Assembly: GCA_964342815.1 (NCBI GenBank)
Contig: CAYFHS010000047.1
Location: forward strand, 1-21,448
Length of the DNA: 21,448 bases
Source of the DNA: an uncultured archaeon
GTDB taxonomy: Archaea; Thermoplasmatota; Penumbrarchaeia; JASLWR01
Direction of reading: 5' to 3'
In this document: one piece after another, positions 443 through 18,587 of the stretch
Numbering within the stretch: the stretch's first letter is position 1
Layout of the letters: the number at the start of each line of letters is the position of its first letter
The notes under the pieces: model-generated
Databases searched by the model: none
The model's input: the letters and a program-made list of their open reading frames with translations, nothing else
What the model was told of the DNA's origin: nothing
Program-made: the position numbers and the translations under genes

Positions 443-673
443 TCATATCATGTAAAAGATTCGATACTTCCCCACTCGTTCCGAACGAATCATTCCCGCT
501 TCCTCCAATCTTCGAAGATGATGTCTAAGGGTTCCGCCGGCAATATCCAATTGTCTTTTGATACGCCGGTAATGCTCCCCAGGATGTTCACCGATATACT
601 CGTAGATCGAACGGCGTTTCTCGTTTTCGACTATCTTTTGCTCTCGTAAGGACCGAATTGGGATCACCCACAT
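443..673 (-). CDS. Stand-alone single winged-helix DNA-binding domain (N-terminal wHTH of the COG3398/HVO_0163-like family), 76 aa; possibly a fragment
   Basis: RRSIYEYIGEHPGEHYRRIKRQLDIAGGTLRHHLRRLEEAGMIRSERVGKYRIFY is a typical wHTH. Manual alignment gives 37/68 identities to the first wHTH of 4093-7380. No clear SD, and an in-frame TAA immediately precedes the ATG. Confidence 0.75.
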   Translation of the reverse strand: MWVIPIRSLREQKIVENEKRRSIYEYIGEHPGEHYRRIKRQLDIAGGTLRHHLRRLEEAGMIRSERVGKYRIFYMI

Positions 674-764
674 TTATATTTCTCGTGAAAAAAAGAACCG
701 ATGGAGACGACATACTCTCAATCGTTTTTGTTCACAGTCGCGCCATCGGTCCCTTACAGTTGTT

Positions 765-3167
765 CTATCGGTTTCTGGGCTCAAATACAGCCTTTTTCTC
801 CTCAGTCCACTTGCAGATCATAACTCCTTCGAAATGGTTTACCATGTCATCATTTTCGGAGGGGCTGTCTTGGAAAGGCAAGGAGGAACGGCTCCTGTTG
901 GACCCATTATCGTCCTCCTCCTCTTCCGGGGGGAATTCGGGCTCTTCCTGCTGGCCCTCGAGGTCCTCGGGGTACCAAACGTTCAGGTCATCTATCTCCA
1001 CCACAAAACAGGTGTACTCAGTGATGAAATCGTACTGGCACGAAAGCTCAACTACGCGGTCCACCAGTTCCGACGTCTCTCCGTACACTTCCATCTGCTC
1101 CATGATCTTTTCGATCTCCTGGTAAGCCCAGAGCCTTGCCACGAATGGATTTTTATCGTTACCGCCCACGTTCACGGTATCGGTGAAGGTGCGGACCCCG
1201 TTGCGTCCGGTGGCGTTTATCTCCATATCGAAAGATTCGCAGCGTTCGAACCTCCCCGTTATCGCTATGTCGGTACCTGCAAAGAGGTAATCGGCACTCT
1301 CCTGGGATACGTCATACACATTTTCCGAGAAACCGAAATCCATCTGCATCAGAAGAGGGGTCGAGATGGTACGGTAGAAATCGGTTATCTGGTTGGTAGG
1401 GTCGCCCGATGTGCTGATCTTGATAGCCTGACCGAAATTCTCCATGCTTATGGCCCGGAGGAAATCGAAATCCACGTCGGAGCCGAATCCCAGGCAGAAA
1501 ACGGAAGAACGGGCCGTATTGGTATTGACTATGTTGTTCCTTATTCGAGTGCAGTCACTCTCCCCTGCCGTGGGTTGGCCGTCGGTTAAAAGCACCACAA
1601 TGGGTATGTGAGAATTTCCCTCATCCCCCAGCAGTTCCAGGGCATCCATGGCCGCCTGATTGAAGTTCGTGGACCCGGAAGCACCGATATTGTTGATGAA
1701 GTTCACAGCCCGCTGCTTGTTTTCCCGGCTCGCAGCGATGATCTCAGGCTCGTACTGCTCCACACCGGTTGAAAAGGTCAGTATGTTGAACTTGTCATCC
1801 GCGGGAAGGTCATTGACTACATATTCAAACGCCTCTTTGACCTGGCCGATCTTTTTTCCCGACATGGAGCCGGAACGGTCAATTACGAATATGATATGCT
1901 TGGGGACCGGCGCTTCCTGGAGGGCGTTTGCAGACGGCGAAAAACGCAGGAGGAAATATCCTCCGTCACCGTCGTTGTGAACTGTCACGTCACCCTCCAG
2001 CGGGGGTTCTCCCACTGTATAGAGTAATTTGATATCCTGAAGACTGGTCTGGTTCGCGCTCAGAACCATTCCCGCCGCCTGGTTCGAGCCTATAACGAGA
2101 TTATTGTTGTGGATCGGCCCTGAGACGCTGAAATTATCGAGACCGCTCTTGTGGTACAGGTCCATGATCATCAGGAACTCACCTATGGTCTCGTACGAGT
2201 TGATGCCTGCGATGGGTACGTTATAGCTGAATTCACCCAGGTATCTCTTGAGGAAGGTTTCATGTCGAAGGTTGACCTTCATGTATGATAGTGGAGGAAC
2301 TCTAAGGCTCATCTCCAGGCTGTTGCTGCCGTGCCATTTGATGAATACCGCCATCTTGTCAGGTCCCTGTTTCACAACTTTTTCAGCCTCTTTCGGTATG
2401 ATGAAAGAGTAATAAGTATTACCGTTCAACACCATGGTAAGGTTGGATACCATGGCTCCCTCGGGTATCCTGATGGTGAAGGATTTGGTGCTTATATTGC
2501 CAGTTGGGTTTGCCACCCCGAGCTGGATGTCGGTGACGGCGTAGGAGTTATCGATGACGAGACTTATCTTCGTACGTGCAAGGCTTACGCGATACTGCGG
2601 ATAGTATGGCTCCCCCACGAAATCGAAATTATAGTTTTTCCTCGGTTGATCGCTATCTTCCTCGTCGGATTCCGCTGCATCCACCGGTTTTTCTTCTTCC
2701 TCAACTTCTTCGACCTCAGGCTCTACCGGTTCTTGCGGAGGCGGAACTGCGGAATTGCCGTCCTCTTCGGGCTCGTTCGTTAGATCCGTCCCGGCATCCA
2801 CCACATCACTGTCGGGAGGTACTGCTGCATTGTTGGATTTCTCTTCTGCGGGTTCGGGCGGCGTATTTTGACTCCCGACGGGTGTATCTGGATTTTGAGT
2901 TGGGTGTTCCGGTTCCACCGTGGTATTATTTGCGCTTGCTGCCGCTTTGGCCTTATCATTGGTTCCCATTAGTTCCTGGAAAAAATAATTCTCCGTGAAA
3001 CCTTCATGCGACTCCGCGGTCTCATTTCCAAATTCATCTTCGCTATTCCCGACCCTAATTATCTCAACCGGCCGTTCCGCCGCATTCATATAGATTATAT
3101 ATACCATGTTGACGCCCAGAAGCAGGAACACCAACACCAGGGACAATGTGTTTTTCTTTATCTCCAT
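765..3167 (-). CDS. Membrane-anchored VIT + vWA (inter-alpha-trypsin-inhibitor-like) surface protein, about 800 aa
   Basis: N-terminal hydrophobic segment LSLVLVFLLLGVNMVYIIY, an acidic E/P/D stalk, a VIT-like region, and a vWA domain with intact MIDAS (DRSGS...T...LTDG) followed by RLWAYQEI and an acidic tail. Start moved from the track GTG at 3239 to ATG at 3167 because of a perfect SD. Confidence 0.9.
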   Translation of the reverse strand: MEIKKNTLSLVLVFLLLGVNMVYIIYMNAAERPVEIIRVGNSEDEFGNETAESHEGFTENYFFQELMGTNDKAKAAASANNTTVEPEHPTQNPDTPVGSQNTPPEPAEEKSNNAAVPPDSDVVDAGTDLTNEPEEDGNSAVPPPQEPVEPEVEEVEEEEKPVDAAESDEEDSDQPRKNYNFDFVGEPYYPQYRVSLARTKISLVIDNSYAVTDIQLGVANPTGNISTKSFTIRIPEGAMVSNLTMVLNGNTYYSFIIPKEAEKVVKQGPDKMAVFIKWHGSNSLEMSLRVPPLSYMKVNLRHETFLKRYLGEFSYNVPIAGINSYETIGEFLMIMDLYHKSGLDNFSVSGPIHNNNLVIGSNQAAGMVLSANQTSLQDIKLLYTVGEPPLEGDVTVHNDGDGGYFLLRFSPSANALQEAPVPKHIIFVIDRSGSMSGKKIGQVKEAFEYVVNDLPADDKFNILTFSTGVEQYEPEIIAASRENKQRAVNFINNIGASGSTNFNQAAMDALELLGDEGNSHIPIVVLLTDGQPTAGESDCTRIRNNIVNTNTARSSVFCLGFGSDVDFDFLRAISMENFGQAIKISTSGDPTNQITDFYRTISTPLLMQMDFGFSENVYDVSQESADYLFAGTDIAITGRFERCESFDMEINATGRNGVRTFTDTVNVGGNDKNPFVARLWAYQEIEKIMEQMEVYGETSELVDRVVELSCQYDFITEYTCFVVEIDDLNVWYPEDLEGQQEEPEFPPEEEEDDNGSNRSRSSLPFQDSPSENDDMVNHFEGVMICKWTEEKKAVFEPRNR

Positions 3168-3172
3168 TTTTT

Positions 3173-3179
3173 TCACCTC
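3173..3179 (-). promoter_or_regulatory. Shine-Dalgarno GAGGTGA for VIT-vWA-1
   Basis: Minus strand reads GAGGTGAaaaaaATG, with the ATG at 3167. Confidence 0.8.
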
Positions 3180-3270
3180 TATGAGTTTCCGGCGGGACGA
3201 AGCAGCGACACTTTTGCCGGTGGGATTCGCCCTTTTCACCGTTCACAAATAATGGAAGTACCGAAAACGC

Positions 3271-3291
3271 ATATAAACAGATTGACACAAT
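3271..3291 (-). promoter_or_regulatory. Promoter element: palindrome ATTG-N3-CAAT, 3 nt, then TTTATAT TATA box (copy 1)
   Basis: Minus strand ATTGTGTCAATCTGTTTATAT upstream of VIT-vWA-1; 20/21 identical to 7405-7425. Confidence 0.75.
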
Positions 3292-3439
3292 AACTTCCAC
3301 TTCCCGGGCGGCCAATTTTTTTGTAGAAATCAATCTGGTAAATGGCCAATCAGAGAATTATTAAAATAAAGTGAAAATATTGGATAAGACCAATGACATG
3401 ATCATAATCCATAAGGATGACATGGCATCCATCTTAAAC

Positions 3440-4027
3440 TCAATTTATTCCAAATTCCCTGAATTTTTTGCTGTATTTGGGCTTTTCTTTGATTTTTCTT
3501 ATATAGAATCCATAGGCCAATCCTATTGCCAGGCCAATCAAATGAGCTATATTTGCTGTTCCTGATGGGAAGAAAATACCAAAACTGTCAATTACAATAT
3601 ATAATATCCCGAGCATCCAAAGGGGCATGGGTATTACCATATAGAACAGGATCTTCTTGGTGGGGTATAGTACTATTGCCATGCCGGCGATTCCCATTAT
3701 TGCACCACTGGCACCTAGTGCGGACGAGTAGAAAAAGCTTGCACCTATTCCGGCCAACAATCCTCCTGTTATATATAATATCAAGAAACGCTTCGTGCCT
3801 ATTCTTTCTTCAACCAATGGGCCAAATACAATTAGTGCGATCATATTGAATACTAAGTGTGACAAGCTGCCATGTAGAAACATCGAGGTTATCAGTATCC
3901 ATGGTCTTACGAGTATATCCTCAGACACTAATAGAAATTCTCCTGTAAAACCTTTGGAGAATTCTTGTACAAGAAATGCGATAACATTGATGACAACCAA
4001 CGTTAGAGTAGCTTTTTTAATATTCAT
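3440..4027 (-). CDS. Rhomboid-family intramembrane serine protease (S54), 195 aa
   Basis: TSMFLHGSLSHLVFNM motif, EERIG, catalytic GASG serine and ANIAHLIG histidine, about 6 hydrophobic segments. The catalytic dyad is intact. Confidence 0.97.
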   Translation of the reverse strand: MNIKKATLTLVVINVIAFLVQEFSKGFTGEFLLVSEDILVRPWILITSMFLHGSLSHLVFNMIALIVFGPLVEERIGTKRFLILYITGGLLAGIGASFFYSSALGASGAIMGIAGMAIVLYPTKKILFYMVIPMPLWMLGILYIVIDSFGIFFPSGTANIAHLIGLAIGLAYGFYIRKIKEKPKYSKKFREFGIN

Positions 4028-4092
4028 GATTAGTTTATAAAAGCAATGATTTTAAATCTTTGGGTTTGAGTTTATTATTAAAATGGAATGAA

Positions 4093-7000
4093 TCATGTCA
4101 GCCTATTCCCACCCCATGAATCACCCACAGATGAATCTGTGGGTTTCATCCTCGAAACCGCAGAAATCTGCTTCCCCTTCTCCCCTACCACCAAACGGTG
4201 GCGGTCTCCGAAGGGGATTCCTGCGGACTGATCGTCATCAAGATGCCATGTCGGCGCCCGGCCCATCTTCTCGACCTTTAAAACCCCGATATCAGACAGA
4301 TCGTTCATGTGATGCTGCACGGCCCTGCGGGTCTTTCCAAGTTTTTCGGCGATCTGCTGCGTTGTGGTCCCCGGTTCTTTCTGTATGATATCCACGATCT
4401 CCTTCTGGACCGGTGTCAGAATGTGTCCGGCCTTGCGGGCTCCATACGGAAAATAATAAAGATATTTTCCTTCGCGGTGGGAGCTGATCATATTTGACCG
4501 CTCCAGGGTTTTGAGATGGTGCCGAAGGGTTCCGCTGGACATGTCGAGCTGTCTTTTTATCTCCCGGTAATGCTCCCCCGGGTGACGGTTGATGAATTCC
4601 ACGATGGTCTGTCTCTTCTTGTTGTTCAGAATGTTCTTACTTTTCAATCTCGTGTAATAAAAAATGCACAGTATAAGTAGAAGAAGGCCGAGCACGAAAA
4701 ATAGGGCCACAAGAAAATACCCCGGCTCCTCTTCCTTCCATCGCTTCGGGTCTCTTGGATAAGCATCCTTCTCGTTGGGTACGCCGTCGCCGTCCATGTC
4801 GGGGTCCAGTTTGTCCGGAATACCATCATCGTCGATATCGGAGGGGTATGAAAACGGATCATATGGGTCGGTTCCGCATTCCAGCTCAACGGTGTCGTTC
4901 CAGCCGTCACCGTCCGAATCCTCTTCCGTTTCATTATCATCTCCCGTTCCGTTTCCATTCTCACCATCCGGAGGAGTGCCATTGCCACTACCGTTATTCG
5001 GGATTGACCCGTTTGCATTCAAAACTGTTAAAATTAACTCGGTATCGTCGCGGTTCTCCTCCAGGTCCATAACGGTAAGCGTTATGGCATAAAAACCTGG
5101 AATGTCGAACAGATAGGATTGCTTGCTTCCGTAAAGCTTGACTGTCGTGTTGTTATACTGGAATTCCCATGTATAGTTAACTATACCGACGTTGTCCCAG
5201 CTCCCGGTTGCGTTGAAAAATGCGGTCTCGCCAAGGCTTATATTGAAGTTTGTACCAGAGATCGCCACCGGGGCGGTAATATCGATAACTATCACAGTAA
5301 CGACATCCCGATTCCAGTTGCCTCTTTCGTCCGTGAGATTCAGCGTAAGCACATATACTCCCGGTATATTGAATGAAAAACCTCGGACCATCCCATATAG
5401 GATTTCCTCAGTGCCGTCATAGGTGAAATTCCAGGTGTAATTCGATTCTCCCACAGCAAAACTGGCAGTTCCGTTCAGGAAAATGATCTCACCCTGTTGA
5501 ACGATCATATCGTTTCCCGCTCTGGCGATAGGCAGGTCCGAATCCCTTACCGTGAGAGTTTTTTTAATTACTGCCCAGTTTCCCCGGGCATCGGTGACAT
5601 TCAATGTGATTGTATACGTCCCAGGTATGTCGAAAGTGAAACGCGCCGTGGCCCCATTGAGCATTATTTGCCCGCCATCGTATGTGAAGTTCCAGGTATA
5701 ATTGGTGATCCCTGCGTTATCCTGGCTGCCGCTTCCATCGAAAATAAAGGTCTCGCCCCGGTTGATGACTGACAAGTCACCCGCATCGGGTATCGGCGGC
5801 TCGATATCCAGCACGTATACGGACCTCTCGTCGCTGTCGGTCCGGTTTTCCTCGTCGGTGATCGTCAACTTGATCTCATACGCTCCTACAGTATCGAACA
5901 GGAATGAAACTGTACCGCCGTAGAGAGTTATTTCCTCATCATCATAATTAAAGGACCACGTGTAGTTGATAATCGCAGAGGTCCCCCAAGAGTTCATCCC
6001 GTTGAATTGAAGCGTTTCATGCTGGTCAACGGCGACATCAATTCCCGCATTGGCCACCAGAACCGGATTTCCACCTACCGGAATCCCTGTGAGCGGAAGC
6101 TGGTCTTCTGCATTGGCGGCGCCGTCAATGGCGTAGGGCAGATCCACGATACCGTCGCTGTCATTGTCCGGGCTTACCCATTCCGACCAGTAATTTCCTC
6201 CCGAAGGAATGTTCCAGTTATTACCGGTACCGTCATCGTAGCCTTGCGCCCCTTCGTTGTTTGCGATGAAATCGTTGTGATGGATCGTATTATCCCCGGA
6301 TTCGCCGTCCAAAGAAATGCCGTAATTATTATTTTCAAAGTATGTGTTATTGAATATTTCGTTATCGTCTGAACTGCTGAAGTTCATCCCATATCCCAGG
6401 TTCCTTCCCACATTGTTGTACTTTATTGTACCGCCGTCGGAACTCCAAAGCTCTATACCGCCAAAACCGTTCTCATCGCATGTGTTGTTCTCAATGATAC
6501 TGCCGTAACAGTTCCGGAGAGATATTCCTGCTCTTTGGTTCACTGAGCAGGTATTAAATTCGATGATATTGCCATTGGATGAGATCACGTTGATACCAAA
6601 AGGGTCGTTGGAATCGAATTTATTGTTTCTTACTTCGATATTTGTGGAAAAAGCGATATCAAGGCCCACGTTTGCGTCTGTGATGATCTGATCCTCCACT
6701 TCAACGCCATTACAGCGAGAAAGTATGATCTGGCCTGCATCATCGGGGACCTTCCCCCCGGTCTGGTTCTTCCAGTAATGCACCATCTTCCCGTTCACCG
6801 TGTTAGAGGAATCTATGGTATGAGTGTCCCAGTTACCCAAGTATGTTCCCGATATGAGTATCCCATTCGAGAACATCTTGTTGTTGATGATTATGATGCT
6901 CGTGGTACGGTTCAGGTGCAAGCCCACTGATTTGTTTGTGATGGTATTGTCTTCTATGCTGCAGCTTCCCACGTTATCCACAGCGAGCCCGGCCCCTTCC

Positions 7001-7380
7001 GAATATGAATCGTTAGTGGTAATGTTGAAGCCCTTTACGAGGACACCCGCGGAGCGTATCGTCAGCACATCAGTGGAATCGCCGATGATGTAACAAATAT
7101 CGCTCCCGGCCCCGATAAGCTCTATATCGTTGCTGACCACCGGATTTTCGTAATATATTCCCCCCTCAACCTGGACCGTGTCACCGTCATTTGCCGTGTT
7201 GAGAGCCGCCTGTATACTTCGATGGTCTGCACCCCCAGCTTGATTTACCACTATGGTTTCGGCACGGGTTCCGACGACAGTATCCTGAACGTCCGGGGTG
7301 CTTTGTGAGACAACACCGGATCCCGTGATGAGAACCCATGACAGTAAAAAGACAAGAAAAAATCGGCCTCTCCATCGCAT
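4093..7380 (-). CDS. Membrane-tethered transcription regulator: signal peptide - right-handed beta-helix (NosD/CASH-like) - 4x PKD - TSP3-like Ca-binding repeats - TM - tandem wHTH, 1095 aa
   Basis: Signal MRWRGRFFLVFLLSWVLITGSG; I..N...N beta-helix repeats; four PKD units with NYTW.F.Y...F..PG.Y.I.L..TD; DSDGDG/DIDDDG/DMDGDG motifs; TM YFLVALFFVLGLLLLILCIFYY; wHTH1 HPGEHYREIKRQL...GTLRHHL; wHTH2 QKEIVDIIQKEPGTTTQQIAEKLG...AVQHHM. Confidence 0.93.
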   Translation of the reverse strand: MRWRGRFFLVFLLSWVLITGSGVVSQSTPDVQDTVVGTRAETIVVNQAGGADHRSIQAALNTANDGDTVQVEGGIYYENPVVSNDIELIGAGSDICYIIGDSTDVLTIRSAGVLVKGFNITTNDSYSEGAGLAVDNVGSCSIEDNTITNKSVGLHLNRTTSIIIINNKMFSNGILISGTYLGNWDTHTIDSSNTVNGKMVHYWKNQTGGKVPDDAGQIILSRCNGVEVEDQIITDANVGLDIAFSTNIEVRNNKFDSNDPFGINVISSNGNIIEFNTCSVNQRAGISLRNCYGSIIENNTCDENGFGGIELWSSDGGTIKYNNVGRNLGYGMNFSSSDDNEIFNNTYFENNNYGISLDGESGDNTIHHNDFIANNEGAQGYDDGTGNNWNIPSGGNYWSEWVSPDNDSDGIVDLPYAIDGAANAEDQLPLTGIPVGGNPVLVANAGIDVAVDQHETLQFNGMNSWGTSAIINYTWSFNYDDEEITLYGGTVSFLFDTVGAYEIKLTITDEENRTDSDERSVYVLDIEPPIPDAGDLSVINRGETFIFDGSGSQDNAGITNYTWNFTYDGGQIMLNGATARFTFDIPGTYTITLNVTDARGNWAVIKKTLTVRDSDLPIARAGNDMIVQQGEIIFLNGTASFAVGESNYTWNFTYDGTEEILYGMVRGFSFNIPGVYVLTLNLTDERGNWNRDVVTVIVIDITAPVAISGTNFNISLGETAFFNATGSWDNVGIVNYTWEFQYNNTTVKLYGSKQSYLFDIPGFYAITLTVMDLEENRDDTELILTVLNANGSIPNNGSGNGTPPDGENGNGTGDDNETEEDSDGDGWNDTVELECGTDPYDPFSYPSDIDDDGIPDKLDPDMDGDGVPNEKDAYPRDPKRWKEEEPGYFLVALFFVLGLLLLILCIFYYTRLKSKNILNNKKRQTIVEFINRHPGEHYREIKRQLDMSSGTLRHHLKTLERSNMISSHREGKYLYYFPYGARKAGHILTPVQKEIVDIIQKEPGTTTQQIAEKLGKTRRAVQHHMNDLSDIGVLKVEKMGRAPTWHLDDDQSAGIPFGDRHRLVVGEKGKQISAVSRMKPTDSSVGDSWGGNRLT

Positions 7381-7404
7381 AATTTACAAATACACGATTC
7401 TAAT

Positions 7405-7425
7405 ATATAAACAGATTGGCACAAT
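7405..7425 (-). promoter_or_regulatory. Promoter element: palindrome ATTG-N3-CAAT plus TTTATATA TATA box (copy 2); probable leaderless transcript
   Basis: Minus strand ATTGTGCCAATCTGTTTATAT(A). The TATA box ends about 24 nt before the ATG at 7380, and there is no SD. Confidence 0.75.
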
Positions 7426-7483
7426 GATTACTCTTTTAGCTAAAAATATTTGTTTTACTGGTTTTTTCCACCTTATGTAACAT

Positions 7484-7501
7484 TTCGGTTCATGAACTGA
7501 A
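7484..7501. promoter_or_regulatory. 18-bp near-perfect palindrome in the divergent intergenic region (candidate operator)
   Basis: TTCGGTTCATGAACTGAA, with a perfect core GTTCATGAAC and one mismatched pair, just upstream of an AT-rich TTTAATATA. Confidence 0.35.
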
Positions 7502-7591
7502 CATATTTAATATAAGCGATTTTAATCAATAGTATTTGTACAATGTTATTTCATATATATTGATATCAACCCATGAGTTAAGGTGTGTATT

Positions 7592-10500
7592 ATGAAAAAA
7601 GGATTTGCGCTATTATTCGGATTCTTGATGATCGTAGTTGGTCTGTCACCTATGCTGGCAGCCGGTAATATGGTTCCTCGGGGAATGGCCGAGCATTCGG
7701 TTATGTTTCCACAAATCGAGTACCTCCATGTCAACGTCACTATAAACGATCGTATAGCCCATACCGAGGTGGATCAAGCGTTTAGGAACACTAATGATGA
7801 ACCTTTACACGGAACCTATTTCTTCCCTGTTCCCAATAGGGCGGTCCTGAGCAATTTCTCGGTTCTTGTTGACGGGGTGGTCAAGACTCCCCGGATAGTT
7901 GAGGATGATGAGTCGGATGCGTTCTTGAAGTCCCAAGTTCTCCAGCAAAATGATTCATCGTTTCTTAGATACATGGATGACGATCTTTTCAAGCTTGACA
8001 TCCTGATTCCGTCTAACCAGACCAGGGTAATGCACCTGGAATATGACGAGTTCCTCACCAAAGAAAACAACGCTGTCAAATACCTCTATACCCTTTCCTC
8101 GGCCACCTATTCCATTACTCGGGTCCCACATATCAGACTGACGATCAACATCACTTCCGAGAAGGGCGTGCGTAATGTGTATATCCCGGAATATGATACT
8201 ATTATCACCCGCAACTCCCGGGATAATGTGGTTGTAAGCTGGGAAACCGGCACTCTTTTAAATCCGCTGCAAACCCGCAGCCAGCAGGGCCAAGGTCAAG
8301 GTCAGGGCCAAGGTCAAGGTCAGGGCCAAGGTCAAGGTCAGGGCCAAGGCCAAGGTCAAGGTCAGGGTCAAGGTCAGCAGGGTCAGCAAGGTCAGGGTCA
8401 AGGCCAAGGTCAAATAGTTAGTAATAGACCTCCCAGGATCAAAGACGGTTATATCCAAGCCTCAACCCATTACCAAGAATTCACTCTCTTTTACACCCCG
8501 GTGGATGATGATAAGGGTGGATCGTTTCTCAACTATGATGACGGGGTTGACAGGTTCTTCATGTTCCTCTATTCTCGGGAGGATGAGGACAGGGAATCCG
8601 TGCGGCTTCCCAAAGACGTGGTCTTCATTTTTGATAAATCAGGGTCCATGAGCGGTAGTAAAATCGAGAAAACCCGTGAAGCACTGGTGCAGATGATTGG
8701 GCTTCTCACCCCTGATGACAGATACGATCTGATCGCATTCGACAATACCGTAACCCCTCTGTTCGGTGAACTCGCATCGGCAACTTCGGAACATTTGCAG
8801 ACAGGCCTCGAAACGGCCAGATCCTTGACTGCCAGTGGATCTACGGCCATTAACGACGCCTTAATAAAAGGGTTTTCAGAGATGGCTCCCGGATACCAGG
8901 CCGGCCGTTCTCGATTGATCATGTTTTTAACCGACGGGTTGGCGAACGTGGGTGAATCCTCTGTGGAAGGAATAACTGCCAATGTGGAGAATGCAAATTC
9001 CGAAATAAACGTGCCTATGTTCGTATTCGGCGTCGGCACCGACGTAAACAACCACCTTCTGGGTCAGTTGGCCCAGGAAAACTGGGGCGAGGTGTACTAT
9101 ATAGACCGGTCGGGGATGAACCTGAACGAAATTGTTTTGAGGGTGTTCAATGAAAACGCAAATCCGGTGCTATCCGACGTGACCGTGGAATTTCAAAATA
9201 TTACCACAGAGCAATTGTATCCCAAGAAGATCGGGAATCTGTATGCAGGATCTGAGCTTTTACTGGTAGGGAAATACCGGGGCTCCGGGGAGCTTACCGT
9301 ATTCGTCAACGGAACAGGATACGATGGTACTATCTCGGATGTTTTCAAGTTCCAGGCAGGACCCAATGCGGACCACCCTTACATCCCCCGCCTCTGGGCA
9401 ACGCGGCGGATCGGGGATCTGCTATTCAACATCTCCATAACAGGCGGAGGCAGCCAGGAGCAAATCGACGAGGTGATCGAACTTTCTATGAAATATGGGA
9501 TCGTGACACCGTATACCTACCTTATTATCGAAGAGAATGCGAATGAGCTGACCCAGGACAACGAAGCGTATAATGCTGATTCCAATAACGATGGAATCCC
9601 CGATGGCAATGACGCTCAAGGAGATGGTGGACAGATGGGTCAGGGAAAAGGTCAAGGATACAAAAAAACCACGTCATCCACCACTGCGGCCGGAGGAAAT
9701 GCCAGGACTGTGGGCATTCGCTCTTTTGTAGAAATTTTCAGGGTGATATTCGATCTTCATTTATTCTTCGAGAATAATATTACCCATATAACAATCTACA
9801 ACAACGACACCATCGATGACTGGATACGAACAAACTTAAGCATCGATAAGGTGGTCACCTTCGGATCAGAGGAGTATTTCGATCTGGTCAGTGAGCATGC
9901 CGATATACTGGCCTTGGGAAATCTGATCGTATTCAAAACCGGAAATGAAGTGATTTATGTTACTGAGGGCTCGAGGGGATTCGAGTTAATAGATAAGTGG
10001 TTGGAAGTGGACGGGAGGGATGTGATAGTGTCATACCAGTTCACTAAACCGACCGCCATGACGTTCTACTATTCCAATAATCCGTCCGCCCAGTGGATAC
10101 AATTAGACTCCTCAGGGGTTCAAAAGCATCACACTTTCCGGCTTACGGAGCTCAATGAAGGGACCTATTCCTATTACGCTGTAGCCGTCTATCAGGATAA
10201 CTATACGTCAACCGGTTTCCTCGATATGCCTAGTACATGGACCATCCAGTCGGAGACCCCAATTTACCAAATTACCCTGGGCCCCATTATGTATCAAGAC
10301 GGAGTTCCCGTTTCAGGTATGACTGTCATCATCAACGGGGTAATTGATGCTCGGGGAGTCTTGGACGAGTTGGGTACTCTGAGCTTGAACATACCGTCCG
10401 GGACTTATACTGCAACATTGAAGGATGAGAAGAACGAAAACCTTGCCGAATGGATTTTCACGGTCTCGGAAGCGGGAGAACTGAAAGGTAAGATACCTGT

Positions 10501-10879
10501 TGTCGTCCTCTCCGATGAAAGGCCGGAAGAACCATTGGAGAAGCCCAAGGAAGAAGCACCAGATGTCGAAGAGCCTGAGGAAGAGCCACCAAAAGAACAA
10601 CAGGAAGAAACACTGGGAGAACCGACGGAAGAACCTCTTGATGAATTATCGGAAGAGCCGTTGGAGAAAGCGCTTCCCGAACCGAAGAACTCGCCATCAA
10701 CAATGACCGTGATAAATATAATAAACGCAGTTATGGTTATTTCAGTGATTATCGCATTGGTCTTAATAAAGAAGAAACGAGGAGGGGGGCGACCGAAAAT
10801 ATCCCTAGAAAAAAAAGTTCCTGCACTGGAGTATGGCCGCGAGGAAATTTCCCCCGAAGAGGACAATCCAGTCATATAA
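7592..10879 (+). CDS. Type I membrane VIT + vWA (ITIH-like) surface protein with (QG)n insert, C-terminal beta-sandwich-like region, EEP stalk and TM, about 1095 aa
   Basis: Signal MKKGFALLFGFLMIVVGLSPMLAA after AGGTG at 7581-7585 (start moved from the track GTG at 7583). VIT region (V...INDRIAHTEVDQAFRN...YFFPVP..A), vWA with DKSGS...T...LTDG, RLWATRRI, and TM VINIINAVMVISVIIALVLI followed by KKKR. Confidence 0.92.
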   Translation: MKKGFALLFGFLMIVVGLSPMLAAGNMVPRGMAEHSVMFPQIEYLHVNVTINDRIAHTEVDQAFRNTNDEPLHGTYFFPVPNRAVLSNFSVLVDGVVKTPRIVEDDESDAFLKSQVLQQNDSSFLRYMDDDLFKLDILIPSNQTRVMHLEYDEFLTKENNAVKYLYTLSSATYSITRVPHIRLTINITSEKGVRNVYIPEYDTIITRNSRDNVVVSWETGTLLNPLQTRSQQGQGQGQGQGQGQGQGQGQGQGQGQGQGQGQQGQQGQGQGQGQIVSNRPPRIKDGYIQASTHYQEFTLFYTPVDDDKGGSFLNYDDGVDRFFMFLYSREDEDRESVRLPKDVVFIFDKSGSMSGSKIEKTREALVQMIGLLTPDDRYDLIAFDNTVTPLFGELASATSEHLQTGLETARSLTASGSTAINDALIKGFSEMAPGYQAGRSRLIMFLTDGLANVGESSVEGITANVENANSEINVPMFVFGVGTDVNNHLLGQLAQENWGEVYYIDRSGMNLNEIVLRVFNENANPVLSDVTVEFQNITTEQLYPKKIGNLYAGSELLLVGKYRGSGELTVFVNGTGYDGTISDVFKFQAGPNADHPYIPRLWATRRIGDLLFNISITGGGSQEQIDEVIELSMKYGIVTPYTYLIIEENANELTQDNEAYNADSNNDGIPDGNDAQGDGGQMGQGKGQGYKKTTSSTTAAGGNARTVGIRSFVEIFRVIFDLHLFFENNITHITIYNNDTIDDWIRTNLSIDKVVTFGSEEYFDLVSEHADILALGNLIVFKTGNEVIYVTEGSRGFELIDKWLEVDGRDVIVSYQFTKPTAMTFYYSNNPSAQWIQLDSSGVQKHHTFRLTELNEGTYSYYAVAVYQDNYTSTGFLDMPSTWTIQSETPIYQITLGPIMYQDGVPVSGMTVIINGVIDARGVLDELGTLSLNIPSGTYTATLKDEKNENLAEWIFTVSEAGELKGKIPVVVLSDERPEEPLEKPKEEAPDVEEPEEEPPKEQQEETLGEPTEEPLDELSEEPLEKALPEPKNSPSTMTVINIINAVMVISVIIALVLIKKKRGGGRPKISLEKKVPALEYGREEISPEEDNPVI
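8282..8413 (+). repeat. In-frame hexamer tandem repeat CARGGY encoding 44 aa of Q/G
   Basis: The 18-mer CAGGGCCAAGGTCAAGGT occurs perfectly three times (8285-8338) with a fourth one-mismatch copy, then more degenerate CAR-GGY units. Confidence 0.97.
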
Positions 10880-10955: not shown

Positions 10956-13900
10956 TCAATCTTCGTCGAGAAGGTCCTCATCGGAAATATTGATCTCTTC
11001 CGTTTCAACCGTTTTCTCATCCTCGTCACTGCCATCCTCGGACCGGATTTCGGCCCCCGTACTTTCCTCAATATAATCCTCCGTTTCACTCTTTGCATCA
11101 ACCTCTACGTCGACATCCATTTCCTCAGTTATCTCTTCCCAGACTTCCGACTCAACGACATCCCAATCAAATACCTCGGTGTCCCCCGTCTCCATGTCTT
11201 TTTTCATGTCATCCTCAACCACCCCATTTTCTCCAGTACTACAGCTGCCGCATATCTCGCCGTCCCCCTCCACGCCCTCTCCGCAGTCGGGGCAGGTATA
11301 GCCCGGTGCGTCTATCACCCACGTATCCTCGAAATCCTCCGTATACCGGTCCCAGCACTCCATATCTTCCTCTACCACAACCGGTTCCTCGTTCTTTGTG
11401 GAATCACTCTCGGCCGCACTTGATTCTTCCTCCTTTATCACCCGGGATGGTATGTCTTTCGTCTTGTCTCCATCCCCTGCTTCTTCGACCCTTTCCGCAT
11501 TCTTTTTTCGCCGCTTGAACACAATGAGTAAAGAAACAACTATTATAAAGACAAAAAGAATCGCGAAAATGATCATCCCGCCGAGAGAGGTGGAAAATGC
11601 CGCCCAATCTTTATCGAACCAGTCACCGTCATCGTCCCGGGGACCGGTGACGTCGTCATCACCCGGGCCCGTATCATCGTCATCTCCAGGTGTCACGTCG
11701 TCGTCATCCTCGATATCCGGCACATCCTCCCCCTTTAACGAAATAATCAGGCTGTCGCTGCCATTGTTTCCCGCCGCATCGAAGACAGTGAGATATATGG
11801 TATAATTTCCTGATTTTGCGAATCGGAATTCAGTGATCGGCCCGTATATCGTCCGCAACTTTCCATCATACTCAAAGCTCCAGGTGTAGTTTATCACACC
11901 AATGTTGTCCCGGCTTGCGGATCCATTGAAACTCACCAACGTGCCATTATCCACGGTCATATCCGCTCCCGCATTTGAAACGGGTGCATCATCGTCCTTC
12001 ACCTGACGGACGATGCTGCCGTCCTCGGGGTAATTTATCGCGTTTCCGGCAGAATCCCATAACAGAAAGGTATATTCCAGAATTAGGGCGTCCGCCGGAA
12101 TATCCACTAAGTGATACCAGATATCGGCTGCACCCCGTACCATGGCAGCAACGGAAGAAGTTCCGTCGATCACATAACTTACATTCATCCCGACTATACC
12201 GATATTGTCGGTGGCCCTTAAAGTAATATTGAAAGGGTTGCCGGTGCAAGGGATGTTCGACCCGGGCTCTCCCCCCACTACGGGTAAATCATCATCGATA
12301 AGCTTCATATTTTCAGGCATGGTCTCATTCCAGTTACCGGAAATGTCGCAGGCTGCAAAACGGTAGGAAAAATTTCCATGATCGGGAGCGGTAAAGCGTA
12401 TTCCCCACTGGTCTCCGCTGCGGTTGGAAACCGATAGATTTAGGATATTTTCACCGTATTCCAGTATCAGGCGGACCTCCTCGATTCCCAGATTGTCGGT
12501 GGTCACGACGGAAAGGGTCAGCAGGTCACCCGTGGTTGATGATGAGGGGAACGTTACTTCGCCAAAAACGGGCGGGTCGTCATCGGTCACATTGATCGTA
12601 CGGCGTAGCGTGGAATTCCAGTTCCCGGCGATATCCGACACATAGAAGGCATAATGAAGTTCTGTGGCATTTGTGGGGATCGTTATGTTCCCGCTCCACG
12701 TTCCCCTGCTTATTTCCAGGGTAACATTTTTTTCCAGTCCGGGACCGAAATCGTATCGTGCAATTGCGGCATTTGCATCATCGGCCACCAAACGAAGATT
12801 GAAAATATCCCCGGTAGTGGGTGTGCCCATGGGCGCTTCAGTAATTTCAGGCATCAATAGGTCAATAGTGAAATTCAGTTTATCATCGGCCGTATTTCCT
12901 GCCAGATCGCGGGCTCTTACCACTATACTGTGTTCTCCTGGAGTCAGGTTCGTAAGGACATACGACAGGTTAGCCCCAACATCGAATTCTGTCGAGCCGT
13001 CAAGAAATAATTCATACTCATGAATGCCGCTAAGATTGTCAGAGCCCTGCCAGGTCACGTTTATTTCGGTACTGTTCAGAAAACTGTTTCTCTCAGGAGC
13101 GGTGATGTTCACCACAGGTGCAGTCAGATCCACGTGAAATGATAAATTTGTTGAATTCAAATTTCCGGCCAGATCGCTGAGCTGCACCCATACTGTATGC
13201 GGCCCCTCGGCCAGGCCTTCGAATGTATGACCGGTGCTTGAGCCTGCATCCTGCCATTCTCCGTCGTCGAGACTGTACGAATAATTATTCACCCCACTGG
13301 TTTCATCCGTACCGGTCCAGTTCATCGTCACATTGGTGGAATTATGGAATGAGCCAGCCCCGGGGCTGGTGATGCCGAGCATAGGAGGCGTATTATCGAT
13401 GATCAGGTCCGTTTCATAGATGTATTCGTAGGTCCCCCGTATGGCTTTCCATTGAATCGTATGGGGGCCGTCCGCGTAAATTGATGTATTCAGCACATAA
13501 TACCAGTAATCGGTTCCGTTCACGCCCTGCCAAGTCCCGCCATCCATCTTCATTTCAATGTCGGTGATTATGTCCGAGGCGGTACCGGTGATATTCACGG
13601 TCCCTCTTTTCAATTCAGCCGATGAAGTGGAATTGACGCTAAGATGACCAACTAAACCCTTTATGCAGAAGTTGGCGGTGGGATTCAATCCGGTTAGATC
13701 GCGCCATTGTGTCCCATTACGATAAAAGCTCTCCCCCGGGCTTGCTTCAGAAGTTACCAATGTCATTGGCCTCGGCCCGTCCAGCAGTACCGGAACGTCG
13801 GATGTCCGATCGAATGGATGGCCGCCCCGGGAGAGGTTCACAAGAATATAGAAAAAATCGCCCTTTGTGAGCTGAACCGGGTTCGGGAGGTCTATGGTGC

Positions 13901-15059
13901 GGAATCCCCGGTAATCGATATGGCCGCTTTTGGAAGTGAGCTCGTCCTTTAAAGTCCCGTTATGAAATTTATCGAAGATCTTCACCGTGTAGTTGACGTT
14001 GTCGGCAGCGGTATAGAAGCTAACGGCTCTCAGCTCTTCATTGTCAGTGGCGTTAAATGCGTTGAATGCCTCCGAGGCGTTGGCGAGAGTGTCCCGCCAC
14101 CCGTGATAATCATGATAGTAATAGCGGCTGTAAGGTTCGAGAGTAACGTTCTGGTACGAGACAGTTCCCATCTCAATGTTTCTCGTGGAGTGTTTATCAT
14201 AGTACGATATCCAGAAATAGCCGTTGTATGTTCCCCAGTTTCCCCAGCTGTTACGGCAGAGCCATGCCCCCGGTTGCGGGGCTTGCGTGGTCTTGTTGTC
14301 GTCCCATCCGATAATGGAAACGGCGTGGTTCGGATCGTTCCCATTGGCCGGCGGCTGGTAATGGATATAGTTGGACATCAGGCTGCCGGAGTAGTACATG
14401 CAGGTTCCCACTATCCCCTCGGTCATGATCTTTTTCTTGATGGTATCGATGCCGTTGAGCTGATCATCCATGGTGAACCACTCGATCTCCTGGGGATAAT
14501 AGTAGCGGTATGACGGATCGGTTCGGGGGGCCGCACTTGTAATCCCGCTGTAGGGCGAATCGGATTCCCTTATCGCGCCTTCGCCCCGAGTGAGGTATGA
14601 GGAAGTTACCAGATAGTCTCCGCCCTGGTGGACGGTGAGACCGCCTCCGGACGGAGGGATTCGATCATCGTTGTTATGATCGTTGAACCCGTTCCACCAG
14701 TCCAGGTGTGCCTCCGAGAGGTTCGGCTCTCCCGCTTCTCCGGCCCCGGTCCAGTTTCCGGTCATATAGAGATTGCCTTCCATGGATGCGTAGGCGCCGA
14801 AGGTCCAACAGGTCCCGTATGGCCCCTGGTTCCTGATGGATGGAACAAAGTTCTGGCCTCCGTAATCACGCAGGTCGAAGGTCAATGGCAGGGAAGTTGC
14901 ACTGCTGCGCATTGATTGGGATGGAACCGTTGAAATGGATTGGCCATGCCCGGAAGATGTGTGAGCTATGCGAGAAGTGACGGTCGGCAGGGGGAAAGAG
15001 ACAACACAGAGCAGGACGACGGTCATTAGAATCAGAATACATTTCGCAGCAGACCTCAT
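10956..15059 (-). CDS. Cell-surface papain-family (C1A) cysteine protease with lectin-like, Ig-like and PKD domains, TM and acidic cytoplasmic tail with a Zn ribbon, 1367 aa
   Basis: LPLTFDLR start of the mature domain; [12 protein letters not shown] (oxyanion Q, catalytic C); [12 protein letters not shown] (H); CRNSWG (N). Followed by the lectin-like region typical of archaeal C1 proteases, D..PP-delimited Ig repeats, one [26 protein letters not shown] plus KRRKK, and CPDC-x10-CGSC. GGTGA SD upstream. Confidence 0.95.
11622..11709 (-). repeat. About 24-bp degenerate coding repeat, [24 protein letters not shown], in the juxtamembrane linker
   Basis: Read directly from the translation just before the TM of the C1A protease. 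Confidence 0.75.
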
Positions 15060-15137: not shown

Positions 15138-18100
15138 CTATAATATATTGTCAATGGGAATCAGCACCGGAATCGACTCGTCATCCAGCTCGGATTCAAC
15201 CTTGACCTCGTCATCGGTATCAGTTGGGGATTCCAACCCCGCCAACGGTCCTGGAATTTCGATCTTAGCCTCGGGCAGGCCAGCGAAGATTCTTTCGATG
15301 TCCTCGCTGCGGTGCACCGGGATATCCATCCTGCCTTCGGGGCCATTGGATTCATCATCGTCATCCAAAAGCTCGTGGTCACTCATATTCTCGGTATCGT
15401 TCATGGTATGATCTGCTACGGCCGAGCCGACCGGTACATGCACCGCCTCCGCTTCGCCGTCCCCGGAGGGAACCCGGCTCGGAGTGTCGACCTCATCTTG
15501 CTCCGTCCCCACTTCGCTATCGCCCGGGGACCTCGTGTTCGGGGGCTCGATAGAACCGGGCTGCACCGGGACGGTTGGGGTTGTAAATGGTACTTCCGGG
15601 AAAACGAGTGGCGCCAGAGATGGGGGTGCCGGTGCTTTGAGCAGCTCGGGAGCCGCCGACGGCGGCGCTGGAGGTGCAGTTCGTATCGAAGGACCTGCAG
15701 GGGGAACCGTATCGGTGCGGACGGCACCAACAAGCTCAGAATTATTTTTCATCTTTTTGCGCTTTATCTGGAGTGTGACAACGACAAATAGGGCAATCAG
15801 AGCAAGTATTATGGTGACAACTATGATTACCGTAAGAAGCGTATCCGACGCAGCTTTTTCTCCAGTTTCTCCAACAGCGGATGGTTTCCCCCCGTTCCCA
15901 TTGGCCTTCACTACATTTACTGTGATCGTCAGTTCTTCAATATGTACTGAAGCATGCGATGCCGTTACCGTCACCGTGTATTTGCCGAACATGACATTGC
16001 TTGAGATGTCCAGCACCAACTCCAATTCTTTCATGTCCCCCGGCCCCAGCTCCACGCCGTCATCCATTGAAAGACCCGCAAGTCCTCCGTCGTAAAGAAC
16101 GATCTTGATGGACTTGTTAACGCTTCCATTGTTGCTGATTGTTATCTTCTCAGTATGTTTTTGCCCTGGATATAACACGATCATGGAAGGACCTGTCAGA
16201 ATAATATCCCCATTGTCCTGCCCACCATTCCCAGCCAGTTTCACAGTGAAGCTCCACACCCCACTTGCGCATATGCCCTCGAATAGATCGCGGCGGGGAA
16301 TTATCGTCCAGTAATATGTTTCGCCATCAGAAAGACCCATCACTGTATAATTGAAACCGGCCTGACGTTCAGTTAAGAGCTTCATATCGTCCTGTGACGT
16401 TCCCAAAAGAACGTCGTATTCCAGCAATGAAGGATTGTAGAAATCTGTCACCCAGGTGAGATTCACCGCATCCGTTTCCACCACGGTTCCGTCTTCGGGA
16501 CTAAGCAGACTGCTTTCCGGAAAATCCTCCAAAACAGGTTCCTCAACAGTTAGAAGAATGGTCGTATTTGCCGTGCGGCCGGCAAGGTCGGTTACCGAAA
16601 ACATTATACGATGAACGCCCACTTCCAGCTCCGGGACGGATAAATTCTCTCCGTATCCCAGCAATCCTGAAACGTTTGAATGCCAGGTGCAGTTCAGCAT
16701 ATCTCCGTGCAGCTCATCCGGGTCCGATCCTCGGCCCGTAAATGATATTATATCACCCAGGAAAAACACACTTTCGTTAGTAGGTGACAGGATCGCGGCA
16801 CTGTCCGGTGGGTCGTTGACATTCAGAACAGTAAGCGTGAACACTCGCCGGTCCTGTTCTCCGCTGTCGTCGGAGACGTTGATGCTGACATTGTACGTGC
16901 CGACATCCCCGTTATCCGGAGTTCCATATAGAGTGTTATTATCGGCACCCCATTGCAGCCAGCTTGCATTCGTCAGAAGAAACCAGTGGAGTTCATCGTC
17001 CGGATCAATATCCGTGGCATTGTAGACGACCGAATACAGATCGTCCTGCTTCACCTCCGTTAGATCCGTGGTATTGATGACGGGAGGATCGTTTATATTG
17101 GTAACTTCAAGAACAAAGTGCGAGTTTGCCGTACCCCCATTGCCGTCGTGTACCGTCACGTCCACCCACCACAGCCCCACGTCGTTGTTGCCCGGAGTTC
17201 CGTTTAGCAGCCCCGTGCGCTCGTTCATGGACAGGAATGCCGCGTTGGTATCCATGCTCCAGCGTATATTTCCCTGTCCGTCGTCGGTTGAATTATAATT
17301 ATTGTGATAGTAAAAATCCTCTTTTACCGTTACGATATCCGGTGTAAGCAGAACGGGGTCCGTATTCTCCACCGTCAGGGTATAATTGCGCTCAGTATAA
17401 CCCCCTTGACCGTCGGATACGTTGATCCGCACCCAGTAATTTCCAACATGCGAATTGTCCGGTCTTCCATACACCGTGTGATTATCGGCCCCCCAGTGGA
17501 GCCATGATGCGTTCGTACCGAATTCCCATTCCAATTCATCCCGGTTGGGGTCTGTAGCCGTGTATTCATTGTTATAGTACTCGTCCTCGAGGATACTGGT
17601 AATGTCCGGAGTATCGATAACAGGCGCATCGTTGTCTCTCTTGGATCTGAGCCAAGGCCGGAAGGTAACGTGGTCAGTTACGTTATCTCCGGTACCCTGC
17701 GGATTGCCCGTGGTGTGATGAGGACCGGAACGGTTTCCCCACCAGTTGTTCCTCCCGTCCACCTGAAGCGCATTCACATTGTAGACGAAAACACCCCACA
17801 TATCATTTCCGTAAATATCGTTGTAATGAACGTCCGTACCCGCACTCGCCCCATACAGCATTATACCGTTGGAATTGTTCGATACGGTGTTGTTATCGAT
17901 GCCGTTGTCATCCGCACCCGAGAGCTTTATTCCGACCCAATCGTTGGCCGTTATCTTATTTTCGTACACTCGGTTAGAATTCGAATTTTCTATGTATATA
18001 CCGCCGTTCCACCCGCCATTTCCGCTTATGTTATTGTTATGAATAGTGTTCGACACGGCTGCCCACAGGGTTATGCCCTCGTCGTTTCCCGTGATGTTGC

Positions 18101-18587
18101 ACTGGGATATATCACAATTCTGGGAGACTGAGAGCTTGATGGCAGAGTGTGACTGGGGCGCGTTGCGAACGGTAAGAAGTTTGATGACCACCGAGTTGGC
18201 CGTTACGTATATTCCGGTTCCGGTACCTCCCGCATCGATTATCGTCCCATTCACGCTCTCCCCCTGGAGCGTAATTCCTTTGGATACCGTTACGTGCTCG
18301 GTGTAGATCCCGTTGTGAATAAAAACGGTGTCTCCGTGATTGGCGGCGTCCACACCTTGCGAAATCTTTTGAAACTGCTGGCCGCCTCCCGCGTCCACGT
18401 GTATGACCGCGCGGCTGCCGTTCGGGTTAATGTTATTTGCTTTCATTGGCTGCCGGAAGGGCTCCGGCGATGTATAAGAGACCGTGTTTTCATTCGTAAT
18501 CGAAATGCTGCAGGTGAAAAGAATCAAATTTATCAGTATCAGGGCCGATAGCAGAGCATTTCCATGATCACGCATGCAATTTCCCAT
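15138..18587 (-). CDS. Type I surface protein: beta-helix (NosD-like) - 3x cadherin-like/He_PIG Ig - further Ig/FN3-like domains - TM - Pro-rich/acidic tail, about 1149 aa
   Basis: Hydrophobic signal ALLSALILINLILFTCSISI; beta-helix ending in NNWWG; three N.PP.I....ED..Y...Y..TD...W...TNA..L....YG.P.N..VG units; TM LLTVIIVVTIILALIALFVVVTL plus QIKRKK. Alternative start at 18575. Confidence 0.9.
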   Translation of the reverse strand: MGNCMRDHGNALLSALILINLILFTCSISITNENTVSYTSPEPFRQPMKANNINPNGSRAVIHVDAGGGQQFQKISQGVDAANHGDTVFIHNGIYTEHVTVSKGITLQGESVNGTIIDAGGTGTGIYVTANSVVIKLLTVRNAPQSHSAIKLSVSQNCDISQCNITGNDEGITLWAAVSNTIHNNNISGNGGWNGGIYIENSNSNRVYENKITANDWVGIKLSGADDNGIDNNTVSNNSNGIMLYGASAGTDVHYNDIYGNDMWGVFVYNVNALQVDGRNNWWGNRSGPHHTTGNPQGTGDNVTDHVTFRPWLRSKRDNDAPVIDTPDITSILEDEYYNNEYTATDPNRDELEWEFGTNASWLHWGADNHTVYGRPDNSHVGNYWVRINVSDGQGGYTERNYTLTVENTDPVLLTPDIVTVKEDFYYHNNYNSTDDGQGNIRWSMDTNAAFLSMNERTGLLNGTPGNNDVGLWWVDVTVHDGNGGTANSHFVLEVTNINDPPVINTTDLTEVKQDDLYSVVYNATDIDPDDELHWFLLTNASWLQWGADNNTLYGTPDNGDVGTYNVSINVSDDSGEQDRRVFTLTVLNVNDPPDSAAILSPTNESVFFLGDIISFTGRGSDPDELHGDMLNCTWHSNVSGLLGYGENLSVPELEVGVHRIMFSVTDLAGRTANTTILLTVEEPVLEDFPESSLLSPEDGTVVETDAVNLTWVTDFYNPSLLEYDVLLGTSQDDMKLLTERQAGFNYTVMGLSDGETYYWTIIPRRDLFEGICASGVWSFTVKLAGNGGQDNGDIILTGPSMIVLYPGQKHTEKITISNNGSVNKSIKIVLYDGGLAGLSMDDGVELGPGDMKELELVLDISSNVMFGKYTVTVTASHASVHIEELTITVNVVKANGNGGKPSAVGETGEKAASDTLLTVIIVVTIILALIALFVVVTLQIKRKKMKNNSELVGAVRTDTVPPAGPSIRTAPPAPPSAAPELLKAPAPPSLAPLVFPEVPFTTPTVPVQPGSIEPPNTRSPGDSEVGTEQDEVDTPSRVPSGDGEAEAVHVPVGSAVADHTMNDTENMSDHELLDDDDESNGPEGRMDIPVHRSEDIERIFAGLPEAKIEIPGPLAGLESPTDTDDEVKVESELDDESIPVLIPIDNIL

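Follow-up and report, generated by a model that had tools for sequence, protein, structure and literature searches.

The stretch of DNA analysed here, called the window, is the entire contig CAYFHS010000047.1 (21,448 nucleotides, handle C47) from the assembly GCA_964342815.1 of an uncultured archaeon of the Thermoplasmatota (Penumbrarchaeia; JASLWR01). The assembly has 4.35 Mb and is 89 % complete. The subject is a gene for a large membrane protein with two cytoplasmic winged helix-turn-helix (wHTH) domains, hereafter the regulator, together with its neighbours, a rhomboid protease and two surface proteins with VIT and vWA domains. Genes were called from six-frame open reading frames (ORFs) and Pfam matches; a tRNA scan and an Rfam scan of the window gave no match at gathering thresholds. 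Besides the source genome (G000), the comparison included a sister species (G001), a genome of a different genus (G003) and a genome of another family of the same class (G012). Read 5' to 3' on the minus strand, the order of genes is regulator, rhomboid, first VIT-vWA gene (VIT-vWA-1) and a 76-aa wHTH ORF; the second VIT-vWA gene (VIT-vWA-2) lies on the plus strand, divergent from the regulator gene. All four minus-strand genes are under purifying selection, as judged by the ratio of nonsynonymous to synonymous substitution rates (dN/dS) against G001. The order regulator - rhomboid - (IS200) - VIT-vWA - wHTH is retained in two metagenome contigs of the sister species. The locus is most likely a genus-specific part of a surface-protein island, built on two tandem paralogues of a regulator family with the architecture ectodomain-transmembrane (TM) helix-wHTH. 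The features are:

443-673, minus strand: stand-alone single wHTH gene, 76 aa (PF24266; 51-56 % amino acid identity to the first wHTH of the regulator)
765-3239, minus strand: VIT-vWA-1, surface protein, 824 aa by ORF, with a likely start at the ATG at 3167
3271-3291, minus strand: promoter/operator element, copy 2, ATTGTGTCAATCTGTTTATAT, before VIT-vWA-1; an identical copy precedes the G001 orthologue
3440-4027, minus strand: rhomboid intramembrane serine protease, 195 aa (PF01694, E=4e-33)
4049-4056, minus strand: candidate TATA box of the rhomboid, TTTAAAAT, recognised at the level of the consensus, 21 nt before the ATG in a block conserved with G001
4093-7380, minus strand: transmembrane transcription regulator (TTR), 1095 aa, identified by Pfam matches, sequence and hydropathy
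4116-4227, no strand assigned: hairpin-rich mobile repeat of 111 nt, resembling miniature inverted-repeat transposable elements (MITEs) and palindrome-associated transposable elements (PATEs), in frame at the 3' end of the regulator gene
4270-4620, minus strand: cytoplasmic tandem wHTH of the regulator, PF24266 (HTH_HVO_0163_N) followed by HTH_24/HTH_20 (E=2.9e-15 and 4.2e-15)
4660-4716, minus strand: single TM helix of the regulator, FLVALFFVLGLLLLILCIF, residues 889-907, Kyte-Doolittle value 3.31
7404-7425, minus strand (21-mer at 7405-7425): promoter/operator element, copy 1, ATTGTGCCAATCTG plus the TATA box TTTATATA, before the regulator
7583-10879, plus strand: VIT-vWA-2, 1098 aa, with signal peptide, VIT domain, (GQ)n tract, vWA domain with a metal-ion-dependent adhesion site (MIDAS), acidic linker, TM helix (residues 1044-1062) and short basic tail

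From the N-terminus onwards, Pfam matches and the sequence define in the regulator a signal peptide (residues 1-26), a NosD/beta-helix region, four PKD domains, TSP3-like Asp repeats of the Ca type, the TM helix and the two wHTH domains (PF24266 at residues 921-979, HTH_24 at residues 991-1035). The TM helix is directly followed by a K/R-rich stop-transfer sequence (YYTRLKSKN...), and the juxtamembrane motif YTR(L/I)K is common to the paralogues. These signals make a sound case for an N-out/C-in, type I topology. The initial annotation of this DNA, a reading of the letters alone, had described a type I protein with an ectodomain of ~890 aa and a cytoplasmic tandem wHTH; Pfam and hydropathy bore out the architecture, while the ectodomain comes to ~860 aa. 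The match to the ArsR/SmtB-type model NF033788 is marginal, with 56.6 bits over a cut-off of 55. Orthologues are 80 % identical in G001 and 49 % in G003. Against G001 the dN/dS is 0.12 for the regulator and 0.079 for the part formed by TM helix and wHTH domains. A search of the source genome with this part retrieved at least 12 large ORFs (~590-1480 aa) that share the C-terminal module and the YTR(I/L)K motif, and several small soluble double-wHTH genes as well.

The regulator bears the mark of the TTR class (PMC10269533), a polypeptide that unites a DNA-binding domain with one or more TM regions, which supports its classification as a type I TTR with predicted functions in DNA binding and regulation. 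Known representatives are ToxR, TcpP, CadC and Sulfolobus ArnR/ArnR1 (Demey et al. 2023, PMC10269533). Like the regulator they combine an extracytoplasmic sensor, a TM region and a DNA-binding domain; as a class they frequently control adhesion and surface structures and do so while membrane-bound, without being released, and rhomboids go unmentioned in that account (PMC10269533). The regulator differs from ToxR, CadC and ArnR, which carry the DNA-binding domain N-terminally, in its N-out/C-in orientation, its adhesin-like ectodomain and its C-terminal pair of PF24266 and HTH_24, and from known TTRs in its membership of a family with at least 12 paralogues per genome.

The strongest and most informative result of the locus is a conserved promoter element. 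The 21-mer ATTGTG(C/T)CAATCTGTTTATAT (minus strand) is identical at 20 of 21 positions between its two copies in the window, includes a TATA box (TTTATAT, minus strand) and is placed directly upstream of a minus-strand gene in both cases, the regulator and VIT-vWA-1. A near-identical palindrome with TATA box had been annotated before these two genes; the element and its two promoters were confirmed, the palindrome is weak, with 4-bp arms only (ATTG-N3-CAAT). Three copies with at most two mismatches occur in the 4.35-Mb genome, compared to ~0.004 expected by chance and none for the reversed control, and all three are located 25-120 nt before TTR or vWA-protein genes. The third copy, on contig C1, precedes the gene of a 645-aa vWA protein with signal peptide and C-terminal TM helix. 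A relaxed core plus TATA box yielded four genomic sites, two each before TTRs and vWA genes, versus one for the reversed control. Before the regulator orthologues of G001 and G003 the element is identical at 21 of 21 positions, and in G003 it has remained intact though the protein is only 49 % identical and the surrounding promoter DNA is not alignable. In G012 a copy with two mismatches stands before a 648-aa TTR of the same family that has an unrelated BNR ectodomain. The reversed pattern had no match in 37 genomes. A copy with three mismatches in G003, before a PAS-STAS gene, was treated as probable chance. The element abuts the TATA box, and the regulator ATG follows 23-24 nt past the TATA box in all three orthologues, a spacing that suggests a leaderless transcript. 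From this distribution we infer a putative operator of a small regulon comprising the regulator and vWA surface-protein genes; since the box accompanies TTR genes, autoregulation is probable. A perfect 10-bp palindrome, GTTCATGAAC, is also present at 7488-7497, between the divergent genes for the regulator and VIT-vWA-2, in a part of the spacer that is not alignable with G001.

Both VIT-vWA proteins match PF08487 and PF00092 above the cut-offs and display the DxSGS signature of the MIDAS (DRSGSMSG, DKSGSMSG), so that VIT-vWA genes indeed flank the regulator on both sides, as first annotated. VIT-vWA-1 has an N-terminal hydrophobic anchor or signal, the MIDAS and an acidic tail, with no C-terminal TM helix by hydropathy, and a dN/dS of 0.13. 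Its 3' DNA is homologous to that of the regulator at ~4-kb spacing: the acidic linker at 897-928 corresponds to 4897-4928, and the wHTH at 503-586 to 4501-4584 with 74 % identity. This homology and the promoter box identify the regulator and VIT-vWA-1 as tandem paralogues with swapped heads. In the region between VIT-vWA-1 and the wHTH ORF, where the TM helix would be expected, none of the frames has a hydrophobic segment, and indels distinguish the two species; the TM region of the second copy is decayed. The wHTH ORF itself has a dN/dS of 0.086 against G001 (17 synonymous, 7 nonsynonymous changes), which ruled out a decaying pseudogene remnant, and the spacer preceding it carries indels. VIT-vWA-1 and the 76-aa ORF together look like the two parts of a split TTR-family regulator, one a surface protein, the other a soluble wHTH, and an unsplit VIT-vWA-TM-wHTH paralogue is present on contig C1. 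The annotation of two VIT-vWA targets consequently needs revision: VIT-vWA-1 has the box and is a split regulator paralogue, not a plain target; VIT-vWA-2 has no copy of the box, is replaced in G001 by two DUF1670 genes and is not a conserved neighbour of the regulator.

The order of VIT and vWA with MIDAS is that of known surface proteins, inter-alpha-trypsin-inhibitor heavy-chain-like proteins and the marine proteobacterial sortase targets of TIGR03788, which are adhesin-type and anchored in membrane or wall. The two window proteins score far under the TIGR03788 cut-off (154 and 191 versus 552). They differ from these proteins by anchoring with a TM helix, without a sortase signal, and one of the two is a head detached from a former regulator. 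Between VIT and vWA of VIT-vWA-2, an array of 18-nt tandem repeats (8267-8416), perfect to degenerate, encodes the (GQ)n tract of ~50 residues, likely a length-variable linker.

The rhomboid reached 115 bits with PF01694 (cut-off 22.6) and covered positions 4-141 of the 143 profile positions, and hydropathy revealed hydrophobic segments. Ser107 of the GASG motif in TM4, His162 (AHL) in TM6 and H52/H57/N61 (HxxxxHxxxN, TM2) were invariant in a 25-sequence alignment, and by these residues the protease is catalytically intact. Scores for the rhombosortase model TIGR03902 (40.8, cut-off 84) and the GlpG equivalog TIGR04239 (59.4, cut-off 250) stayed below the thresholds. The genome carries only two rhomboid genes. 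A dN/dS of 0.11 between the two species indicates that this one is functional. Its orthologues are confined to the genus and comprise the G001 copy (89 % identity), a cluster at 83 % and copies on three metagenome contigs, likewise at 89 %. Among 400 sampled genomes of the phylum the next best matches were 38-50 % identical and came from other classes; relatives in the own class have only a different rhomboid type with ~330-380 aa, as encoded on contig C20. A search in a set of 5.8 billion proteins and in GTDB genomes located the nearest relatives outside the genus among ~210-aa rhomboids with 50-59 % identity, and those with a source name were labelled Woesearchaeota or Nanoarchaeota. These DPANN rhomboids share the 6-TM core and the same invariant catalytic residues. 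In the three genus copies, unlike the DPANN type, the conserved cytoplasmic tail HL..(E/D)D(I/V)(E/D)EY(L/F)..GRI is replaced by a short FREFGIN end, and the genus copies reside in a Thermoplasmatota genome. A quick maximum-likelihood search placed the genus clade apart from the other short rhomboids of Thermoplasmatota, whose clade has 99 % support; the genus clade forms a polytomy together with two clades of DPANN. A firm claim of a DPANN donor was dropped, as the polytomy also includes the other Thermoplasmatota clade; phylogenetically, the rhomboid appears to be outside the Thermoplasmatota clade and closest by identity to DPANN. The deviating base composition noticed in the initial annotation was confirmed: GC is 0.38 and GC at third codon positions (GC3) 0.39, versus a GC3 of 0.54-0.62 in the neighbours. 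The gene was probably acquired horizontally.

The regulator is followed on the same strand, after 65 nt, by this intact rhomboid, as annotated, and the same junction was found in G001 and on three independent metagenome contigs. The annotation had considered that the adjacency might be unique to this assembly or lie at a contig join; neither is the case, yet it represents a single event in one genus. The 65-nt spacer is conserved, and the distance from TTTAAAAT to the ATG matches the geometry of the regulator's own promoter; the rhomboid probably has its own start and promoter. A hidden Markov model of the TM and wHTH module, built from the paralogues, was scanned against rhomboid loci. The module occurred beside a rhomboid only in this genus and was absent at 58 Thermoplasmatota, 80 DPANN-type and 33 further metagenome loci (~170), within flanks of ~1.5 kb for the loci from genome searches, which are adequate for same-operon adjacency (at this locus no more than 600 nt separate the wHTH from the rhomboid), not for looser linkage. 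Next downstream of the regulator orthologue in G003 are an ORF of 154 aa and an ABC transporter, in G012 the relative is followed by a convergent Ig/TSP3 gene, and the paralogues of the source genome, at least 12, have no rhomboid neighbour either. Linkage of protease and substrate genes in independent lineages, as for regulated intramembrane proteolysis (RIP) with a dedicated protease, was not observed; the pair is limited to the one genus (g1). Mobile DNA is close to the rhomboid: in G000 the MITE is found 90 nt upstream of it, in the sister species an IS200 Y1 transposase comes directly after it, and the site is an insertion hot spot. The adjacency is most simply read as an accident of insertion. 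According to the comparative data it is a single recent insertion, and rhomboid release should not be read as a gene-neighbourhood prediction.

The insertion sequence (IS) in the sister species, an IS200-type Y1 transposase (PF01797, E=8e-30) between rhomboid and VIT-vWA, is located at 5614-7124 of metagenome locus L197, with the ORF at 6258-6749. In G001, contig C108 terminates within the IS200 insert, and contig C158 may be mis-joined there. A separate position of the VIT-vWA-1 orthologue in the sister species, apart from the rhomboid on C158, was considered and dropped, as two metagenome contigs present the order regulator - rhomboid - IS200 - VIT-vWA; the arrangement of C158 is best explained by a contig break or a mis-join at the IS.

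We propose that the beta-helix/PKD/TSP3 ectodomain of the regulator senses a ligand, a surface or Ca2+, and that the regulator would act on DNA while anchored in the membrane, like ToxR, CadC and Sulfolobus ArnR. Its target would be the ATTGTG(C/T)CAATCTG box abutting the TATA box of its own leaderless promoter, and the same box in the promoters of two vWA surface-protein genes would extend control to a small, autoregulated adhesin regulon. Splitting of the second copy would have left a VIT-vWA surface protein and, under selection of its own, a soluble wHTH of 76 aa. The rhomboid would be a functional gene with its own promoter, gained horizontally at a spot that also took up the MITE and IS200. 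The data show the domain architecture, the topology signals, how well the element is conserved, where the rhomboid occurs and how its composition deviates, and purifying selection on the four genes; that the wHTH domains bind the box, that the regulator acts while in the membrane and that a dedicated protease is lacking is what we infer. For the whole of this reading, a membrane-acting TTR with a box regulon, a split paralogue and an acquired, independently transcribed rhomboid, we estimate a probability of about 0.55. Several points weigh against it. In two or more species and in three independent assemblies of metagenomes the pair has retained its common strand and the spacer of 65 nt, and the purifying selection on the rhomboid implies a useful role at this place. 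Rhomboids favour type I single-pass helices, which is the topology of the regulator. No strong oligo-T terminator is present between regulator and rhomboid, so read-through co-transcription is possible. The box could be bound by the neighbouring soluble wHTH or an unrelated factor, and part of the similarity of the two promoters could have been inherited from the tandem duplication.

The initial annotation had proposed a circuit in which ligand or Ca2+ sensing leads to cleavage of the regulator's TM helix by the rhomboid, which alone or with a second protease frees the wHTH domains for action on the own gene and the vWA genes. A single-pass type I helix of the substrate type does adjoin an intact rhomboid, the adjacency is retained in the genus with the rhomboid under selection, the shared operator is present, and a second cut could be supplied by one presenilin/SPP-type protease or two to three S2P homologues of the genome. 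Rhomboid and presenilin-type enzymes suit a type I helix. Rhomboids cleave near the outer membrane face, and a cut at this position would shed the ectodomain and leave the wHTH domains anchored. The comparison did not support the role of a dedicated activating protease. The adjacency arose once, in one genus; base composition and phylogeny mark the rhomboid as foreign, and a conserved TATA box of its own precedes it; TTR neighbours are missing from ~170 related rhomboid loci; and the same cytoplasmic tail occurs without a rhomboid in the orthologue from G003, in the relative from G012 and in 12 or more paralogues. Well-known RIP systems (RseA/RseP, SREBP with S1P/S2P or the fungal rhomboid Rbd2, Notch with gamma-secretase) share with the locus a tethered DNA-binding domain and an intramembrane protease, and both protease types that match a type I substrate, rhomboid and presenilin-type, are encoded in the genome. 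The locus differs from them by the lack of evolutionary coupling beyond one genus and by a protease with own promoter and foreign origin, and cleavage is hypothetical here. The substrate slot of archaeal rhomboids is open, with no natural substrate known for any of them (PMC11985538). We regard the circuit as unlikely, and quite improbable is its extension to a Notch- or Spitz-like archaeal pathway, in which the acquired rhomboid, alone or followed by the presenilin-type protease, would release the tandem wHTH onto the ATTGTGCCAATCTG box of its own gene and of vWA adhesin genes.

The rhomboid might instead be a general sheddase or quality-control protease for many type I surface proteins, with the regulator as one possible client and with ectodomains removed or degraded without transcriptional activation. 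Four proteins of the window are of type I with a single C-terminal TM helix (the regulator, VIT-vWA-2, a papain-lectin protein and a beta-helix/He_PIG protein), and many more are present in the genome. Bacterial GlpG, Rhom7 and YqgP serve in membrane-protein quality control (PMC11985538), and in DPANN the same rhomboid type of ~210 aa occurs widely, with no constant gene next to it. The substrate is hypothetical, and with rhombosortase and GlpG scores far under the cut-offs a specific sorting role is not assignable; we hold this explanation possible, at a level well short of even odds. Rather doubtful is a last alternative, in which the box is bound by another factor, for example the soluble wHTH of 443-673, or is a strong core promoter inherited with duplicated genes. 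The two box genes of the window are tandem paralogues, the box overlaps the position of the transcription factor B recognition element (BRE) and the TATA box, and the small wHTH is under purifying selection. Against this, the box has been conserved at 21 of 21 positions across genera while adjacent promoter bases lost all similarity, further copies precede a TTR of unrelated ectodomain in a genome from another family and a vWA gene on a different contig, and only four promoters of the genome have it, which argues against a generic promoter.

Transmembrane one-component regulators are known as a class, and this archaeal type I family with giant adhesin-like heads and a C-terminal tandem wHTH, present in a dozen or more copies per genome, is unstudied. 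The 14-nt box fused to the TATA box is the first concrete candidate DNA target of the family; it occurs across genera and is common to vWA surface-protein genes. A direct circuit leading from what the cell touches to the choice of adhesins it makes becomes testable. Release by the rhomboid, if true, would give archaeal rhomboids their first natural substrate and would be the first case of an archaeal transcription factor set free by proteolysis.

The mobile repeat supplies 37 residues of the regulator's C-terminal tail. At least ten copies with 79-91 % identity and sharp ends occur in the genome, and the repeat is exactly missing from the G001 orthologue; in this comparison it is limited to the source genome. 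It folds strongly on both strands (z about -6). No Rfam family was assigned; the sole match, to a snoRNA, was below the threshold (15.6 versus 50 bits, E=0.18) and taken as chance. Multiple copies, sharp ends, presence or absence between close relatives and strong hairpins characterize a MITE/PATE-like element. It resembles Rickettsia palindromic elements and IS200/IS605-derived PATEs, being hairpin-rich, multi-copy, in frame in a coding region and missing from the orthologue, and differs from them in being archaeal and without a transposase tied to the repeat in this analysis.

Further genes of the window follow beyond VIT-vWA-2. A papain-family (C1) protease (10956-15059, minus strand, 1367 aa) combines lectin-like, Ig and PKD domains with one TM helix (residues 1163-1181) and an acidic cytoplasmic tail of 186 aa; as an anchored extracellular protease it could act as a sheddase itself. 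In the gene for the beta-helix/He_PIG surface protein (15138-18587), ~1.9 kb (15366-17281) have no counterpart in G001, where the protein has 520 aa instead of 1149 aa; the length difference is a large indel within the repeat-domain region. At the contig end (20400-21448) the GC content falls to 26-35 %. The ORF in this region (20734-21294, minus strand, 186 aa) has a GC3 of 0.18, one TM helix and no Pfam family, and the region may be foreign DNA.

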